Of a stretch of 5,568 nt of DNA, positions 1 through 5,568 are shown piece after piece. Origin of the DNA: a virus (lineage: Duplodnaviria > Heunggongvirae > Uroviricota > Caudoviricetes); IMG/VR virus record IMGVR_UViG_2675903504_000001; one strand, written 5' to 3'. Every line of letters starts with the position of its first letter. The stretch's first letter is position 1. A program made the position numbers and the translations under genes. Below the pieces are notes generated by a model. It searched no databases. It had not been told where the DNA came from and saw only the letters and a program-made list of their open reading frames with translations.

Positions 1-311
1 AAGTTGGCAGCATCACCGCCACAGAGAATGTTCATATTGTATTAAAAAATGATAATACAGTGTTATTAAAGGGCCTAAAAAACATTGTGTCTGTCAAATT
101 TTCAAAGGATAGGCATCTTATAGAAACGACCTCTAATAAGCTGAAATCCAGAGAGATCACATTTCAGGAATACAGAAGAAACCTTGCTAAAGCAGGAGTT
201 TTTCGGTGGGTTACAAATATCCACGAACAAAAAAGATATTACTATACCTTTGATAATTCATTACTCTTTACTGAAAACATACAGAGCACATCACAAATGT
301 TTCCACACTAA
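1..311 (+). CDS. 3' portion of a conserved prophage protein, possibly DUF1398 (YbcV/YdfO-like); 5' end lies outside the window
   Basis: The frame is open from the window edge (no stop in frame from position 3) to TAA at 309-311. The track's start at 60 is an in-frame GTG, so the true start is probably upstream of the window. Family assignment rests on recalled resemblance of the AGVFRW...HEQKRYYY segment and on position near a lambdoid lysis cassette on the opposite strand, as in K-12 DLP12/Qin; not verified. Confidence 0.45.
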
Positions 312-805
312 ACCATAACGTCCGGTTTCTTCTACCCCTGCACCGGACTGGCTGACATGAAGAGCAACCCCGCGTTCAGTTGACGCGTTAATAACCCGGT
401 GTGCATCGTTTTTGATTATTCCCGCACACTCACGCAGAAGGAATTCCCCGTCGGGCTACGGTCATGGTTAATGCGGGAATACGGCGACGATACAGCGCAT
501 GATGTGTCAGGCTTGAATACCTTTATCCGTTAAAAGGGATATCAGTTAAGTTATCCCGTGTAGGGTATAAGCCATTGTCGAGACCACTCATTGAATGGCC
601 TCTGCAATAACCGATGTCTTTCCATCAGTCCGCCACCACAAAGAATCTTTTTTGCCTTAAGGCAGGAGCTTCATCTTTCAGTGGCTGCCAGTGTTATTTC
701 CCCACTTACTGGCTTGGGTTGTTTCGTGGTACTGCCGTTAACTGGTGGCCCAGAATAAATTCCGGTTTCATTATCAAGCCCACCCGTAAATGGGCTTTGT
801 AATGG

Positions 806-1075
806 CTACTTCACTTTTGCTTTTGCTTTTGCTTCCGCTCGCTTACGCCGGCGCTCTTCTTTCCTCTCGGCTTTTGCCATGTCCATGAATGCCTGCATGA
901 TCGAGTTCCGCATCATGTAGCTAACAAAGTGATGATTGACACAGCCGTTGAGGCGCAGCTGCTCGCCAAACTCATCCACCGAGGCCAATGCTTCCATCAT
1001 GCCCTTCTCGCCTTTCATGAACTCTGAGAAGTCGCGCCCCGCTCTGGAGGCGTATTCAATGACACGATCACTCAT
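806..1075 (-). CDS. hypothetical small protein (89 aa) with strongly basic Lys/Arg/Ala-rich C-terminal tail (ERKEERRRKRAEAKAKAKVK)
   Basis: ORF of 89 codons whose ATG (1073-1075) overlaps the TGA of the upstream KilA-N gene in an ATGA arrangement, indicating translational coupling. Stop is TAG at 806-808. No family recognised from sequence. Confidence 0.55.
   Translation of the reverse strand: MSDRVIEYASRAGRDFSEFMKGEKGMMEALASVDEFGEQLRLNGCVNHHFVSYMMRNSIMQAFMDMAKAERKEERRRKRAEAKAKAKVK
814..837. repeat. hexanucleotide tandem repeat (CTTTTG)x3 plus one degenerate unit, in frame within the 3' end of the 806-1075 CDS
   Basis: Plus strand 814-831 reads cttttg cttttg cttttg, followed by cttccg at 832-837. 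On the coding (-) strand this is GCAAAA-type repeats encoding the AKAKAK tail. Confidence 0.5.
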
Positions 1076-1569
1076 CCCGGAAGCCCGGGGATCGTAATCT
1101 GCAGCTGGTTAGCCAGGGAGTTAATCTCAGCGACCAACACTGGCTTCGTATAGCGCCATGCTGCCAGCCCTTGTCCGCAGAAGCTCGCCATGTCTTTCTT
1201 CTGGTCAAACTCATGACATTTCATGTTGAGCTGCGCACTTAAGCTGTTGCGATGCTGAAGTTCTCCGGTGAAGTAGTCATCGAGGACTTTATAGGCCGCG
1301 TACTTGAACCCGGGGTTTAACCAAGCCGCATAATCGTAAGCAACAAACTTCCCGCCATATGTTCCACCGTGTACACCGCGCTCAGTAAAAACCACAGATT
1401 CGTGGTTTTTCTCCAGCTCGGCTAAGAACTCTTTGGTCTGCTTGTTTCGCAGGTAGTGGTAAGGCGATTCAGATTCACTTTTACCACTGGCTTTCCACAT
1501 ATCAGTGAGGCAGATCATGCCATCTTCACCGATACGAATTGGTTGATTGAAGAGGGTTAATGATTTCAT
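1072..1569 (-). CDS. KilA-N domain protein (prophage-encoded, putative DNA-binding/antirepressor-like)
   Basis: 165-aa ORF. The central segment GVHGGTYGGKFVAYDYAAWLNPGF matches the recalled KilA-N signature (GTW-HP-LA...W-SP-F). A plausible SD (AGAGTAGG) lies ~9 nt upstream of the ATG at 1567-1569. Domain call is from memory of the family pattern. Confidence 0.65.
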   Translation of the reverse strand: MKSLTLFNQPIRIGEDGMICLTDMWKASGKSESESPYHYLRNKQTKEFLAELEKNHESVVFTERGVHGGTYGGKFVAYDYAAWLNPGFKYAAYKVLDDYFTGELQHRNSLSAQLNMKCHEFDQKKDMASFCGQGLAAWRYTKPVLVAEINSLANQLQITIPGLPG

Positions 1570-1684
1570 AGCGTGTACCTACTCTTTGAAATGAACCTTT
1601 GCCGCACAGGAAACCAGCCCACCGAGGCTCGCCAGCACTAACTGGTATCCTCAAAGGCCCATTCCAAAGGGGCAGGTTCGGTGT

Positions 1685-1739
1685 AAAAAACATGCGTTGC
1701 GGTACGCATTTATTGCAAAAAGCCCCGCATCGCGAGGCT
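1685..1739 (-). terminator. tandem rho-independent terminators downstream of Rz/Rz1 (on - strand)
   Basis: Hairpin 1721-1739 (agccccgc/atc/gcgaggct) forms an 8-bp stem with one G-U wobble on the - strand RNA (a C-A mismatch on the + strand) and is followed on the - strand by U4-5 (plus 1717-1720). Hairpin 1692-1709 (atgcgt/tgcggt/acgcat) is followed on the - strand by G then U6 (plus 1685-1690). Confidence 0.5.
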
Positions 1740-1770
1740 CATTAAATGGACTTTGTGATTTGCAAAAAAA

Positions 1771-2244
1771 TTATTTCAGGCATTGCGTCCTGATGTATTC
1801 CTGCAGGTAGTTAACCTGCGCGGTTATCTTGTCGATTCCACTTCGGAGACGGTAATAATTGAGTTCAGCATCTGCTGTAAGTCCTGGGCTTTCTCCATCG
1901 CCCATGCCGCTGGCTCCGGTCGTTGACTTTGCACAGGTGGCGGCGACTTGCAGGCGCTTACGCCCAGCAGAAACATCAGCACGGAGACTTTCGATAGTCG
2001 CGTTAGCATCAGCAAGCTCCTTTGTGTATCTTGCGTCGAGTTCTGCTACATCACGTTGACGCTTCCGCATGTCAGCGATGGTGGCGTTCGCCTTCTCCAG
2101 TTCACTGGCCTTGTTATCGCGCTGCTCTTTGTAGGCGATTGCGTTATCACGGTAATGATTAACAGCCCATGACAGGCAGACGATGATGCAGATAACCAGA
2201 GCATAAATAATCGCGGCGACTCTGCTCACTGATCTATCCCCCAA
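1771..2244 (-). CDS. Rz: Rz i-spanin (inner-membrane spanin subunit)
   Basis: 157-aa ORF with an N-terminal hydrophobic TMD ([20 protein letters not shown]) followed by a charged, coiled-coil-like periplasmic domain. Its start overlaps the 3' end of the endolysin gene by 19 nt and it contains an embedded out-of-frame lipoprotein ORF, the canonical Rz/Rz1 architecture. Confidence 0.85.
1824..2015 (-). CDS. Rz1: Rz1 o-spanin (outer-membrane lipoprotein) embedded in the +1 frame of Rz
   Basis: 63-aa ORF entirely inside Rz in another frame. Signal peptide ends in a lipobox-like VSAC followed by a proline-rich mature region ([16 protein letters not shown]), typical of Rz1. The exact start (Met1 or Met3) is uncertain. 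Confidence 0.65.
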
Positions 2245-2759
2245 CAGGCTAATGCGCTTTCCTGGTCACGACGAATAACCTGTCCATAGCAGTTATTTGA
2301 ACGTATGCGGCAATCGCGCCCACCATCTTTTATCCACCAGCGAATCGCCTCGCATGCACCTTTACGATCACCGGCATTCAGCCGCTTATAAAACGTCGAC
2401 GGGAAACACTTACCGGGGCCAATGTTATAGGGACAAAATGACGCGATACCCGCTTTCTGTGGTTCGGTCAGTGGCACTTTAATATTGCGCTCCACCCATG
2501 CCAGCGCCTTATCCCGTTCAATGGCGTTAACCTGGTCGCATTTTTCCTTCGACAGTTTCATACCGGGAAAAACGGGTTTTCCATCCACCACCGTGGCACC
2601 CCGACAGATGGTCCAGATGCCGGAACCATCGCGGTATGCCGTTGTGTGGTTACCTTCTTTTTCATCCAGAAACTGGTCGAGAATATCAGGCGCAGGCGCA
2701 CCGACGGCAATCAGTGCCAGAACGGCAGCCGACAGGCCGTATCTGATTTTTGCGTTCAT
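2226..2759 (-). CDS. R: SAR (signal-anchor-release) endolysin, GH24 T4-lysozyme-like muramidase
   Basis: 177-aa ORF. N-terminus has K/R followed by a weakly hydrophobic Gly/Ala-rich segment ([18 protein letters not shown]) typical of SAR domains. Catalytic E-x8-D-x5-T triad is present ([16 protein letters not shown]). Size and context match the recalled K-12 Qin RrrQ-type lysozyme. Confidence 0.9.
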
Positions 2760-2864
2760 GGATATTTATCAGGATTTATCGGTTTCTGAACCCTGGATAT
2801 GTTTATCTGTCCCGGCCTGTTGAATCAGGCAAGGAATAGTTAAATACAATAGAGAGGATTGTTT

Positions 2865-2954
2865 ATGGACAATAGCACCATTTCTCTACAGGAGTTGCTC
2901 GACTGCATTTCCAAGCTTCGGGATGATGTAAATGCCCTTACTGTCGCATTTTAA
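2865..2954 (+). CDS. candidate small ORF (29 aa, MDNSTISLQELLDCISKLRDDVNALTVAF) on the strand opposite to the lysis genes
   Basis: ATG at 2865 is preceded by a strong SD (agagagga at 2851-2858, 6-nt spacing); stop is TAA at 2952-2954. It lies in an otherwise unexplained 340-bp gap between the DUF1327-like gene and the endolysin gene. No homology recognised and the peptide is not hydrophobic. Below the ORF-track cutoff, so speculative. Confidence 0.2.
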   Translation: MDNSTISLQELLDCISKLRDDVNALTVAF

Positions 2955-3102
2955 TATCTGGCATTCTCAATTCCCAAGGAACAAATGCAACCAACACTGG
3001 CATCGCTCCAGCTTGAATCACTCAACCCCAAATGGTCCCAGCAACAACAAAATTCTTTCAAGTGGCTGGCGGTATTACTGGAAGAAAAATATGCTGGTGA
3101 AA

Positions 3103-3447
3103 TTACCATTTCGGCGGAGTCTTCAGAGAACCAGTAATTCTTCCCGGTAGCTTTCCTTTGTAGGTTATCCACACATTCTGCGCCTCTAAAATTATGGGGC
3201 GCTTTTCCGGCGACAGCTCATCCCCTTCACATAACCCGGCAGCAACATCCAGGAAGACCTGTCTGATGCTCCTTCTGGCTGCTGCCTCATAAAACTCCAG
3301 CGCGGCACCTTCAACACGGTCCAGCGAGATGTCCAGGTCAAAAATTTCACCGTCAAAGCGTTTTTTGTCCCGTAACGCTAAAGTTACCGTAACTTTATTC
3401 TCAAAATTGCGGATCCCTTTCACAATCAGTTCATAGTTTTGAGTCAT
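3103..3447 (-). CDS. DUF1327-like (YdfR-like) prophage protein located between holin and endolysin
   Basis: 114-aa ORF starting 4 nt after the holin stop, with SD-like GGGGAGAG inside the holin 3' end. The holin - DUF1327 - lysozyme - Rz order matches the recalled essQ-ydfR-rrrQ-rzpQ order of the K-12 Qin prophage. Family assignment is by synteny and recalled N-terminal similarity, not verified. Confidence 0.55.
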   Translation of the reverse strand: MTQNYELIVKGIRNFENKVTVTLALRDKKRFDGEIFDLDISLDRVEGAALEFYEAAARRSIRQVFLDVAAGLCEGDELSPEKRPIILEAQNVWITYKGKLPGRITGSLKTPPKW

Positions 3448-3451
3448 TGAA

Positions 3452-3667
3452 TTACTCTCCCCGTGCAGCCTTACGCTTGTCTTCTTTAATCTTGAAATAA
3501 AGGTTTGTCAGGTACGTCAGCATGCCAAATACCAGGCTACCCAGCACTCCAATTGCCGCCCACTGTGAGGGCGTGACTTTATCTAGCAGCTGTAAAAACC
3601 AGTACCCGGCACTACCTGCTGAGGTGCCATAGGCGACACCCGTTGTTAACTTATCCATGGATTTCAT
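3452..3667 (-). CDS. S: class II pinholin, phage 21 S21-like (71 aa) with dual-start motif
   Basis: 71-aa ORF beginning MKSMDK (Met1 and Met4, the S21-71 antiholin / S21-68 holin dual-start arrangement). Two TMDs are present ([19 protein letters not shown] and [23 protein letters not shown]) with a charged C-terminus ([13 protein letters not shown]). Strong SD GAGGTG lies 6 nt upstream of Met1. Near-identity to phage 21 S / K-12 EssQ is recalled from memory. Confidence 0.9.
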
Positions 3668-3777
3668 AACCCCACCTCGCAGACAAAGCGGGTGTAAATT
3701 GAGGGAATACTACGAAACGTAACAGACTCGGAGTCAGTGAATAACTCAGGTATTGGGTTATCAGCTAATATCGAGAC

Positions 3778-3812
3778 TCAAAAAATGGAAAAACCCGCTC
3801 GACGGCGGGTTT
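3778..3812 (-). terminator. rho-independent terminator on the - strand ~110 bp upstream of the holin start
   Basis: Perfect hairpin aaacccgc/tcgacg/gcgggttt at 3791-3812 (GC core cccgc/gcggg). On the - strand RNA it is followed by UUUUUCCAUUUUUUG (complement of plus 3779-3793). On the + strand it is followed only by UUUAAGC, so it is oriented for - strand transcription. Confidence 0.5.
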
Positions 3813-4240
3813 AAGCTGTGTGACGAAGTAACCACTCTTAACAGCATAACCAATTTTTTACGTACGTAAACCACTAAATGATATTTGCGAGAATGCTACC
3901 GAGTATTGAAAACACCACTACAAATACATAAGCAAATCTCAACAAATAACCAACAAATAATTTCCAGTGTTATTTTTAGCCGGTTTAAATTGAACCTTCA
4001 AATTATAGAGCACTTATAAATAACAGCCGTTAATATAAATTGGCTAATAGATTTATTTTTATTCAGCCAAGAGCCATGAATAGGATTCGATAGAAAAAAG
4101 TTCAGATAAAAATAGAGATCTACTTCACAAATCAAACGAGAAACCAAAACTTACATCTTGAAATAATCACATTGATTAGATGAATATTTATCGCGCAGTG
4201 ACATCATTTTTTAATAATAGTTCAAAAAAAAGGGCTCACG
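3813..4240. promoter_or_regulatory. AT-rich divergent regulatory region upstream of the porin gene, with an OmpR-box-like motif and candidate promoter elements
   Basis: About 430 bp of A/T-rich sequence with many A-tracts. TTACATCTTGAAAT at 4151-4164 resembles recalled OmpR-site sequence from ompC/ompF promoters (ACATTTTGAAAC). Candidate -35 TTGAAA (4158-4163) and -10 GAATAT (4182-4187) with 18-bp spacing. Porin SD aaggg lies ~8-12 nt before ATG 4241. Promoter assignment is weak. Confidence 0.35.
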
Positions 4241-5323
4241 ATGAAAAAATTAACAGTGGCAATTTCTGCTGTAGCTGCATCAGTACTGATGGCGATGTCT
4301 GCTCAGGCAGCTGAAATTTATAATAAAGACAGTAACAAGCTGGATCTGTACGGGAAAGTTAATGCTAAGCACTACTTCTCCTCTAATGATGCAGATGATG
4401 GTGATACTACTTATGCCCGTCTTGGCTTCAAAGGTGAAACCCAAATCAACGATCAACTGACTGGTTTCGGTCAGTGGGAATATGAATTCAAAGGCAACCG
4501 CGCTGAATCTCAAGGTTCCTCCAAAGATAAAACCCGTCTTGCCTTCGCTGGCCTGAAATTCGGTGACTACGGCTCCATCGATTATGGCCGTAACTACGGT
4601 GTAGCATACGATATTGGTGCATGGACCGACGTTCTGCCAGAATTCGGTGGCGATACCTGGACCCAAACAGATGTATTCATGACTGGTCGCACCACAGGTG
4701 TTGCAACTTATCGTAACAACGACTTCTTTGGTCTGGTTGATGGTCTGAACTTTGCTGCTCAGTATCAGGGTAAAAATGACCGCACTGACGTAACTCAAGC
4801 TAATGGTGATGGTTTCGGTTTCTCCACTACTTATGAGTATGAAGGTTTCGGCGTAGGTGCAACCTATGCTAAATCTGACCGCACTAATAATCAGGTTATC
4901 TACGGTAACAACAGCCTGAATGCATCTGGTCAAAATGCTGAAGTATGGGCAGCTGGTCTGAAATATGATGCGAACAACATCTATCTGGCTACCACCTATT
5001 CTGAAACCCAGAACATGACTGTTTTTGGTAATAACCATATTGCCAACAAAGCACAAAACTTCGAAGTAGTTGCACAATATCAGTTCGACTTCGGTCTGCG
5101 TCCGTCCGTTGCTTACCTGCAATCTAAAGGAAAAGACTTGGGTGCGTGGGGTGATCAGGACCTGGTTGAATATATTGATGTAGGTGCAACCTATTACTTC
5201 AACAAAAATATGTCCACTTTTGTTGATTACAAAATCAACCTGATTGATAAGAGCGATTTCACGAAAGCATCTGGCGTTGCTACCGATGATATCGTTGCTG
5301 TAGGTATGGTTTACCAGTTCTAA
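4241..5323 (+). CDS. nmpC: outer-membrane general porin, OmpC/OmpF/PhoE superfamily; prophage-encoded NmpC/Lc (OmpD-like) type
   Basis: 360-aa ORF with signal peptide [23 protein letters not shown] / AEIYNKD. Porin hallmarks throughout: [109 protein letters not shown], and C-terminal aromatic F (VYQF). N-terminus and overall sequence match recalled E. coli NmpC / phage PA-2 Lc. Location between the phage late regulator region and the holin matches the DLP12 quuD-nmpC-essD arrangement. Confidence 0.93.
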
Positions 5324-5338
5324 TTTGATTACTAAAAG

Positions 5339-5421
5339 ATATGTTGCGGGAGGCTTTGCCTCCCCAACATATAAGTGGCTCCCTCAAGCCACTTCCTTTA
5401 GAAGCACAACCTTGCTTCTAA
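5339..5421. other. array of three immediately adjacent perfect or near-perfect stem-loops; the first (5339-5372) is a candidate - strand terminator (tR'-like)
   Basis: Hairpin A 5339-5372: atatgttg-c-gggaggc/ttt/gcctccc-caacatat (15 bp with a 1-nt bulge). Hairpin B 5373-5394: aagtggct/ccctca/agccactt (8 bp). Hairpin C 5398-5421: ttagaagca/caacct/tgcttctaa (9 bp). On the - strand RNA, hairpin A is followed by CUUUUAGUAAUC; on the + strand it is not followed by a U-run. Confidence 0.45.
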
Positions 5422-5450
5422 CTATATAAACCTTCTGTTATATATTACCC

Positions 5451-5486
5451 TTTATTTTTGGGGGCGTTGCAACGCCCCATTTTTAA
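5451..5486 (+). terminator. rho-independent terminator of the porin gene
   Basis: Perfect GC-rich palindrome ggggcgttgcaacgcccc at 5461-5478, preceded by tttatttttg and followed on the + strand by AUUUUUAAUAAC (T5 at 5480-5484). On the - strand it is followed by an A-run, so it is + strand specific. Confidence 0.6.
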
Positions 5487-5511
5487 TAACTTTTAGTAAA
5501 CAACTGGCATA

Positions 5512-5568
5512 TTAATTAGAGTTATTAACAACGATATCCATCTCTAACGTAAGCGTCGTCTCAGCACC
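5512..5568 (-). CDS. 3' end of a - strand ORF entering from the right edge (candidate late antiterminator Q-like gene; identity not established)
   Basis: One - strand frame is open from the window edge and ends at TAA (plus 5512-5514), encoding ...GAETTLTLEMDIVVNNSN*. The position immediately upstream of a promoter-like / hairpin / terminator module and the lysis genes is where Q lies in lambdoid phages. Only 18 codons are visible, so the call is positional inference. Confidence 0.3.
   Translation of the reverse strand, partial: GAETTLTLEMDIVVNNSN

Follow-up and report, generated by a model that had tools for sequence, protein, structure and literature searches.

An intact NmpC/Lc-type porin gene between the Q and holin genes of an insertion-disrupted, DLP12/PA-2-like prophage locus

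Introduction

The present work concerns a porin gene carried by a stretch of tailed-phage DNA of 5,568 nucleotides (Caudoviricetes; IMG/VR record IMGVR_UViG_2675903504_000001), which at its full length is referred to below as the window. The closest described counterparts of this gene are porins of lambdoid phages and prophages of Escherichia coli. In the DLP12 prophage of strain K-12, the porin gene nmpC (b0553) lies between quuD, which encodes the antiterminator Q, and the holin gene essD, on the opposite strand. The Lc porin of phage PA-2 (J02580) is encoded upstream of the lysis genes in the corresponding position and orientation. Phages PhiR34_1 and PhiR68_2, whose records describe complete, plaque-forming phages, carry a porin labelled OmpD in a Q-porin-holin arrangement, and the lambdoid prophage Perceval of the adherent-invasive E. 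coli strain LF82 has an NmpC porin that is listed among the morons of that prophage. LF82 lysogens express the Perceval porin at a level 10-fold above the local prophage background (PMC9928086). Other natural copies are also expressed: those of nmpC in strain CFT073 rise at 37 C at both the mRNA and the protein level (PMC12890032), and nmpC of Shigella flexneri is induced anaerobically (PMC4229854). The closest chromosomal lineage is that of Salmonella OmpD, a core chromosomal gene which is not phage-borne; nmpC is regarded in the literature as the ompD equivalent of E. coli, a view that extends to the small RNA RybB, of which nmpC mRNA is a reported target in E. coli (PMC3333887).

A sequence-only reading of the window had proposed that it contains an intact prophage-encoded porin of this type, lying as a moron between the late regulator Q and the holin. 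The analysis described here assigns a probability of about 0.9 to the interpretation that the gene is an intact, functional NmpC/Lc general-diffusion porin gene which forms a self-contained moron between Q and the holin of a DLP12/PA-2-like lambdoid prophage. The evidence for this interpretation comes from the protein itself, from its relationship to other porins, from the conservation of the region upstream of the gene, and from the genes on either side.

Results

A full-length general porin

The gene and its signal sequence occupy the following positions.

4241..5323, + strand: NmpC/Lc-type (OmpD-like) porin gene, assigned from the open reading frame, the Porin_1 match, and the identities to Lc, NmpC and the PhiR34_1 porin
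4241..4309, + strand: signal peptide of 23 residues, followed by AEIYNK, identical to the sig_peptide annotated for Lc in the PA-2 record J02580

In the list of open reading frames, the gene starts with ATG and runs for 360 codons to a stop without any internal stop. Its product matches the Pfam profile PF00267 (Porin_1) over the entire length of the profile (residues 29-360 against profile positions 1-337 of 337; E 3.7e-153, 510 bits), and it matches porins in the PDB (OmpC, OmpK36, PhoE and OmpF structures) at E values of 1e-137 to 1e-108, the closest relatives there being OmpK37, OmpC, OmpK36 and PhoE (E ~1e-135). The protein ends in VYQF, so that its terminal phenylalanine is of the beta-signal type, and alignment shows that the PEFGG motif of constriction loop 3 is kept. 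The equivalents of the OmpF pore residues K16, R42, R82, R132, D113 and E117 are likewise conserved in the alignment. An AlphaFold2 (AF2) model computed with 44 homologues has a mean predicted local distance difference test score (pLDDT) of 72.8 and a predicted template modelling score of 0.70, and it contains 16 strands besides a short N-terminal strand that closes the barrel.

The protein thus combines a full-length profile match, a signal peptide with a C-terminal phenylalanine, and a 16-stranded barrel with the PEFGG loop 3, which are the marks of the general bacterial porin family, and the intact NmpC/Lc-type porin previously proposed at 4241-5323 is borne out in each of these features. 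By analogy with the family, the protein is predicted to form trimers and to permit the non-specific diffusion of solutes.

The gene also differs from its neighbours in composition. The fraction of optimal codons is 0.72 for the porin gene and 0.78 for ompF, and it lies at 0.44-0.49 in the phage genes next to the porin gene; the GC content is 44% in the gene, 35% in the region upstream of it, and 48-52% in the neighbours. An open reading frame of 280 amino acids on the minus strand within the porin gene (4280-5122) was considered as a gene in its own right and set aside, since it is most likely a by-product of porin codon bias. Similar antisense open reading frames are annotated in the PA-2 and 434B records.

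Relationship to Lc, NmpC and the chromosomal porins

The reference porins used for comparison were taken from K-12 MG1655 and from the PA-2 record, with IS5, the insertion sequence (IS) that splits the gene in K-12, removed from NmpC in silico. The porin of the window is 91.1% identical to PA-2 Lc and 91.1% identical to K-12 NmpC. It is 93.9% identical to the Perceval porin of LF82, and it reaches 99.7% (359 of 360 residues) with the porin of phages PhiR34_1 and PhiR68_2 and of E. coli MLI110, the sole change being Q186 in the window for E186 in the others. Identity falls to 79-80% with Salmonella OmpD, and to 67.4% with OmpN, 64.7% with PhoE, 63.6% with OmpC and 62.2% with OmpF of K-12. Sequence comparison therefore places the protein in the phage-borne NmpC/Lc lineage, in the OmpD-like branch of the OmpC/OmpF/PhoE family. 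The sequence-only reading had held that the best matches would be prophage NmpC/Lc rather than chromosomal ompC or ompF, and this is what was found, at 99.7% for the PhiR34_1 and PhiR68_2 porins and 91% for Lc and NmpC versus 62-67% for the chromosomal proteins.

The differences from the closest relatives are concentrated in particular segments. PA-2 Lc has 365 amino acids to the 360 of the window protein, which lacks three residues in predicted loop L4 and two in L5; the two proteins also differ by 32 substitutions which lie mostly in loops L4, L5, L6 and L8. The Perceval porin represents another loop allele, of the class found in S1-CAM-01-C, which differs from that of the window in L5 and L8.

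Mosaic structure and loop variation

The first 360 nucleotides of K-12 nmpC are 98-100% identical to those of the window gene. Over codons 1-120 the synonymous divergence (dS) from K-12 nmpC is 0.025 and the nonsynonymous divergence (dN) is 0, while over codons 121-360 dS is about 1.0; from codon 121 onward, dS between the window gene and PA-2 lc is about 0.8-1.0. On these alignments the gene is a mosaic, in which the 5' third is nearly identical to nmpC and the remaining two-thirds come from a different, old allele lineage.

It had been suggested that the divergent residues be mapped onto the predicted external loops, and with loop boundaries taken from the AF2 model, such loops, mainly L4, L5, L6 and L8, account for 24 of the 32 aligned positions that differ from NmpC (odds ratio 7; p 7e-7 by Fisher's test). 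Loops L4-L8 have a dN of 0.27, and the remainder of the gene has 0.026. Outside the loops, the dN/dS ratio is about 0.05, a sign of purifying selection. For the loop codons, where dS is saturated or has no defined value, no claim on dN/dS or on positive selection is made. Recombination with an old allele is sufficient to account for the loop pattern.

The region upstream of the porin and its signals

The region between the holin and porin genes contains elements that are annotated in PA-2, and hairpins occur in it and downstream of the porin gene.

3668..4240, + strand: holin-porin intergenic region, 573 bp, 35% GC; nmpC/lc promoter region by homology, 98% mean identity
3816..3836, + strand: CRP-binding site 1 as annotated in PA-2 (J02580 1067-1087), identical in the window
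4112..4132, - strand: CRP-binding site 2 as annotated in PA-2, with a AGAGATCTACTTCACA core (J02580 1363-1383), identical in the window
5339..5373, either strand: 15-bp hairpin 16 nt after the porin stop; -23 to -24 kcal/mol, z scores of -4.0 and -4.5, no shuffled sequence as good
5461..5486, + strand (porin strand): terminator-like GC hairpin followed by ATTTTTAA, from the terminator scan; -13.9 kcal/mol, z -2.7
3791..3812, - strand (late strand): terminator-like hairpin and U-run from the scan, ~125 nt before the holin start; -12 kcal/mol, z -2.45

The 573-bp region has a mean identity of 98% among the window, K-12, PA-2, PhiR34_1 and S1-CAM, and its last 240 bp before the porin ATG are virtually invariant among these five. 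The K-12 promoter PnmpC lies within -199..-1, depends on sigma-70 and is transcriptionally active (PMC11677980). The porin promoter of the window is putatively placed in the same region by homology to this active promoter.

The hairpin at 5339..5373, which on the minus strand is followed by CUUUUAG, is a candidate for the 3' end or stabilizer of the porin mRNA and also a candidate for the late terminator tR'. The hairpin at 3791..3812 is conserved in K-12, PA-2 and PhiR34_1; its role may be to protect the lysis genes against stray transcription, or it may be the late terminator itself.

Two smaller features were observed in the intergenic region. A 16-bp indel upstream of the holin, at 3714/3715, consists of GTATCGCAAAAAAGCA, which is absent from the window and from K-12 and present in PA-2, PhiR34_1 and S1-CAM-01-C. 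The presumed 5' leader of the porin mRNA contains, at 4196-4203, GCAGTGAC, which resembles a RybB seed target.

The interval between Q and the holin

The genes that border the porin, and those that follow them in the window, are listed here.

5512..5548, - strand: 3' remnant of quuD (Q antiterminator), the last 11 codons (LEMDIVVNNSN) and the stop, identified by translation against QuuD of K-12, S1-CAM and PhiR34_1
3452..3667, - strand: class II (S21-type) holin, essD-like, 71 amino acids, the left border of the interval; Pfam PF04971, E 3.2e-35
3103-3447, - strand: ydfR/DUF1327
2226-2759, - strand: lysozyme, 177 amino acids
1771-2244, - strand: Rz with embedded Rz1
1072-1569, - strand: KilA-N protein (KilA-N/ORF11CD3)
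806-1075, - strand: open reading frame of 89 amino acids
18-311, + strand: DUF1398 gene (3' part), at the left window edge

The late genes of the phage are directed along the minus strand of the window and the porin gene along the plus strand. The claim that the porin is the only plus-strand gene has to be narrowed: it is on that strand, as is the 3' part of the DUF1398 gene. The flanks (Q, holin, ydfR, lysozyme, Rz/Rz1 and KilA-N) are lambdoid, in keeping with the prophage context that had been proposed. The holin homologue is annotated as essD in H1 and H3.

The order of Q, porin on the opposite strand, and holin recurs in DLP12 of K-12, in the complete S1-CAM-01-C prophage and in PhiR34_1, and it was found in nine of ten examined contigs that encode exactly the window protein. 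The layout of quuD, nmpC and essD in DLP12 is the same as that of the window. Elsewhere, the slot between Q and the holin holds other cargo: cspB/cspF in Qin and stx2AB in Stx2 phage II, and in phage 1H12 an opposite-strand blc gene (lipocalin) directly follows a related Q. The description of this interval as a hot spot for morons thus holds for nmpC in DLP12, cspB/cspF in Qin and stx2 in Stx2 phage II.

The gene of the window is, by sequence comparison, nearer to Lc and NmpC than to chromosomal porins, occupies the Q-holin slot on the opposite strand, and shares with nmpC and lc a promoter region with CRP sites, which together identify it as a phage porin of the NmpC/Lc type. Its composition and codon usage are unlike those of its neighbours, and its slot holds different cargo in related phages, as is characteristic of a moron.

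The surrounding cassette is of mixed affinity. Positions 3465-5548 of the window are DLP12/PA-2-like, and the arrangement of holin, ydfR and lysozyme resembles Qin. The lysis cassette at 2226-3667 is a mosaic whose S21-type holin, ydfR (DUF1327) and 177-residue lysozyme with a hydrophobic N-terminus correspond to essQ-ydfR-rrrQ of Qin, whereas the cassette of DLP12 is essD-rrrD. Downstream of Rz the window has the KilA-N gene and the 89-residue open reading frame (806-1569, minus strand), and lambda, DLP12 and PhiR34_1 have bor in that place. At 2865-3137 on the plus strand, antisense to ydfR, MLI110 and S1-CAM have a hypothetical protein of 90 amino acids annotated by the Prokaryotic Genome Annotation Pipeline (PGAP) as WP_000370550.1; in the window this frame is broken by a stop, and only 2985-3137 is still open. 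Scans of the whole window with Rfam and for transfer RNA (tRNA) genes returned nothing relevant, the only Rfam match being a chance small nucleolar RNA (E 0.49), and the tRNA scan found no tRNA gene in the interval between Q and the holin, in contrast to Stx phages.

Insertion sequences at the porin gene

In K-12, IS5 is inserted after nucleotide 1040 of nmpC, which corresponds to position 5265 of the window, and its target in nmpC is CTAA (PMC11677980).

5262..5265, + strand: homologue of the K-12 IS5 target CTAA, which here reads CGAA (a synonymous change of ACT to ACG) and carries no insertion

The alignment of the window with K-12 nmpC is continuous at 5265, and the expectation that the IS5 junction would be absent proved correct. 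The two loci differ in what an insertion has struck: in DLP12 of K-12 it is the porin that is split by IS5, and at the locus of the window it is Q, not the porin, that has been interrupted.

Separate IS hits are known at the porin gene of other strains. K-12 and 434B have IS5 at codon 347, JNEC-KY204 has IS1 within the gene, and MLI110 has IS5 beside it. In MLI110 (locus L001, ~16908, equivalent to window 5519/5520), IS5 lies in the TTAG that overlaps the quuD stop, just downstream of an intact porin gene.

State of the prophage

Both ends of the window consist of IS sequence.

1..17, strand not assigned: terminal 17 bases of IS1, reverse complement of GGTGATGCTGCCAACTT, identical to the IS1 end at 14605-14621 of locus L017
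5549..5568, + strand: start of an IS66-family element (20 bases) that interrupts quuD, identified by identity to locus L017

No E. coli genome matches were found for positions 1-17 and 5549-5568, all E. coli matches starting from 18 or ending at 5548. The locus referred to as L017 (GCA_964038745.1, 11309-14621), which came to light through a lookup of the exact porin protein, is 100% identical to window 18-5568. Its IS66-family element has HTH_Tnp_1, TnpB_IS66 and DDE_Tnp_IS66 open reading frames and is flanked by an 8-bp target duplication, TCTCTAAC. Beyond the element there are ~85 nt more of quuD, then IS1, then unrelated DNA; this IS1 joins the quuD remnant to an AlpA-like gene and dsdC-dsdX-dsdA, and the prophage early region does not lie alongside. 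A search of the species-representative genome collection gave no match to the quuD/IS66 junction. At the left end of the window, IS1 cuts the DUF1398 gene after codon 39; L017 has an intact gene of 136 amino acids.

Q is destroyed in L017, and very probably likewise in the genome that carries the window. Because an IS66-family element cuts Q and IS1 cuts the DUF1398 gene, the element that carries the porin is very probably defective. The earlier description of the locus as a prophage is accordingly correct as to its lambdoid origin and overstated as to its integrity; PhiR34_1 and PhiR68_2, in contrast to the IS-disrupted element of the window, are complete phages. The window itself is probably a complete short-read contig that was broken at repeated IS copies.

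Distribution

Of 5426 complete E. coli genomes, 2503 (about half) carry at least 80% of the porin gene, and 446 records match it at 99% identity or more. The exact protein occurs on 73 public contigs under the name 'MULTISPECIES: porin OmpC/OmpD [Escherichia]', the 90% cluster to which it belongs has 2741 sequences, and a homologue was found in 42 phage records. The allele is thus already known, both from sequenced phages and from hundreds of genomes.

Discussion

If the gene is a functional moron of the NmpC/Lc type, its product would be made and act as follows. Host RNA polymerase with sigma-70 would transcribe the porin from the conserved nmpC/lc promoter region with its CRP sites, independently of phage induction, and this transcription would run against the phage late genes. 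The precursor would be exported by Sec and cleaved after AQA, and the barrel would be inserted by the barrel assembly machinery by way of the C-terminal YQF signal. The resulting 16-stranded trimeric porin would add to, or partly replace, OmpC and OmpF in the outer membrane, and would thereby alter permeability and the surface loops that are offered to phages, colicins and antibodies. Expression of the porin, its pore function, and any exclusion or permeability phenotype are in this scheme predicted from homologues.

Several points weigh against this interpretation or restrict it. A strict sigma-70 consensus scan of 3600-5568 found no promoter, and the candidates from a looser scan were weak, with no more than 8 of 12 bases matching and with implausible locations; the position of the porin promoter is therefore given by homology alone. 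Silencing by H-NS is conceivable in the AT-rich upstream region. Expression in the strain that carries the window is argued from homologues in other strains. The classical PA-2 phenotype, in which Lc reportedly lowers or replaces OmpC, the PA-2 receptor, goes back to work by Schnaitman and co-workers between 1975 and 1986. The AF2 model is moderately confident, with a pLDDT below 50 in loop 3, so that the loop boundaries are approximate, and since dS in the loops is saturated, positive selection cannot be separated there from recombination with an old divergent allele.

An improbable alternative is that the gene chiefly serves the phage and not the host, either because convergent transcription from the porin promoter dampens leaky late (lysis) transcription in the lysogen or because the porin is a decoy or exclusion factor directed against competing phages. 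The porin is opposed to the late genes, the late strand has terminator-like hairpins at either end of the insert, and the surface loops are the variable part of the protein. Furthermore, QuuD is 78-81% identical to the Q proteins of Stx phages, and the record of Stx2 phage II has a putative late promoter ~155 nt after Q; by analogy, the late promoter pR' would be at about 5330-5511, and the porin gene would then be antisense inside the late transcript. However, pR' was not located by the promoter scans of the window, and the alignment with 1H12 and Stx2 phage II was too weak to place it. A lysis-operon reporter fragment of DLP12 that extends from -121 to +650 (PMC7918800) hints instead at a late start nearer the porin-holin spacer. 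The gene has also been kept although Q is gone, and a phage-centred role therefore cannot be what maintains it now.

There is a slim chance that the gene is intact but silent, as ompN and K-12 nmpC are, making no contribution to the outer membrane and surviving only until decay arrives. Such a fate would fit a decaying prophage with IS1 and IS66 at the window ends and with Q destroyed in L017, the frequent IS hits in or beside the gene (K-12, 434B, JNEC-KY204 and MLI110), the failure of the scan to yield a consensus promoter, and the suggestion that expression of nmpC may even be harmful (PMC11677980). It fits poorly with a regulatory region that is more conserved than the coding sequence (98% versus about 88% nucleotide identity) and that is transcriptionally active in K-12 (PMC11677980), with the expression of close homologues in LF82, CFT073 and S. 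flexneri, with codon usage like that of a highly expressed porin, and with purifying selection at a non-loop dN/dS of about 0.05.

That the gene is a chromosomal ompC (or ompF or ompD) orthologue or paralogue rather than a phage gene can be dismissed: the NCBIfam OmpC model scores 517.8 against a cutoff of 484, and RefSeq labels the gene ompC in every genome listed, with the PGAP name 'porin OmpC', but that model is a subfamily and not an equivalog model, the equivalog models for PhoE and OmpF fall short of their own cutoffs, K-12 OmpC is only 63.6% identical compared to 91% for Lc and NmpC, and the gene is found not beside micF/rcsD, where ompC sits, but always between a phage Q gene and a holin, in isolated phage genomes as well. 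The name arises because the broad OmpC subfamily model exceeds its cutoff, and orthology to ompC was rejected on the combined grounds of low identity and phage context.

With the gene read as a functional porin moron, its persistence most likely reflects its status as a host-expressed gene in a defective prophage, and it has outlasted the adjacent phage regulator Q in the strain that carries the window. A further, doubtful proposal is that the 360-residue class, with its short L4 and L5 and its nmpC-like 5' third and promoter, is a selected variant of surface specificity, and that its retention without Q represents the domestication of a phage porin by the host. If this were true, the targeting of the cell by porin-dependent phages, colicins and antibodies would be altered.

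The porin of the window is a well-known phage-carried gene in its usual place, and the finding is in that sense real but ordinary: earlier work has documented this gene family and where it sits, its disruption by IS5 in K-12, and the expression of such genes in natural isolates. The automatic annotation of the porin as 'OmpC' is misleading. Phage-borne porins can change the permeability of the outer membrane, and with it the entry of antibiotics and nutrients, as well as the receptors available to phages and colicins, and an intact copy such as this one is therefore relevant to predicting the envelope phenotype of the strain.

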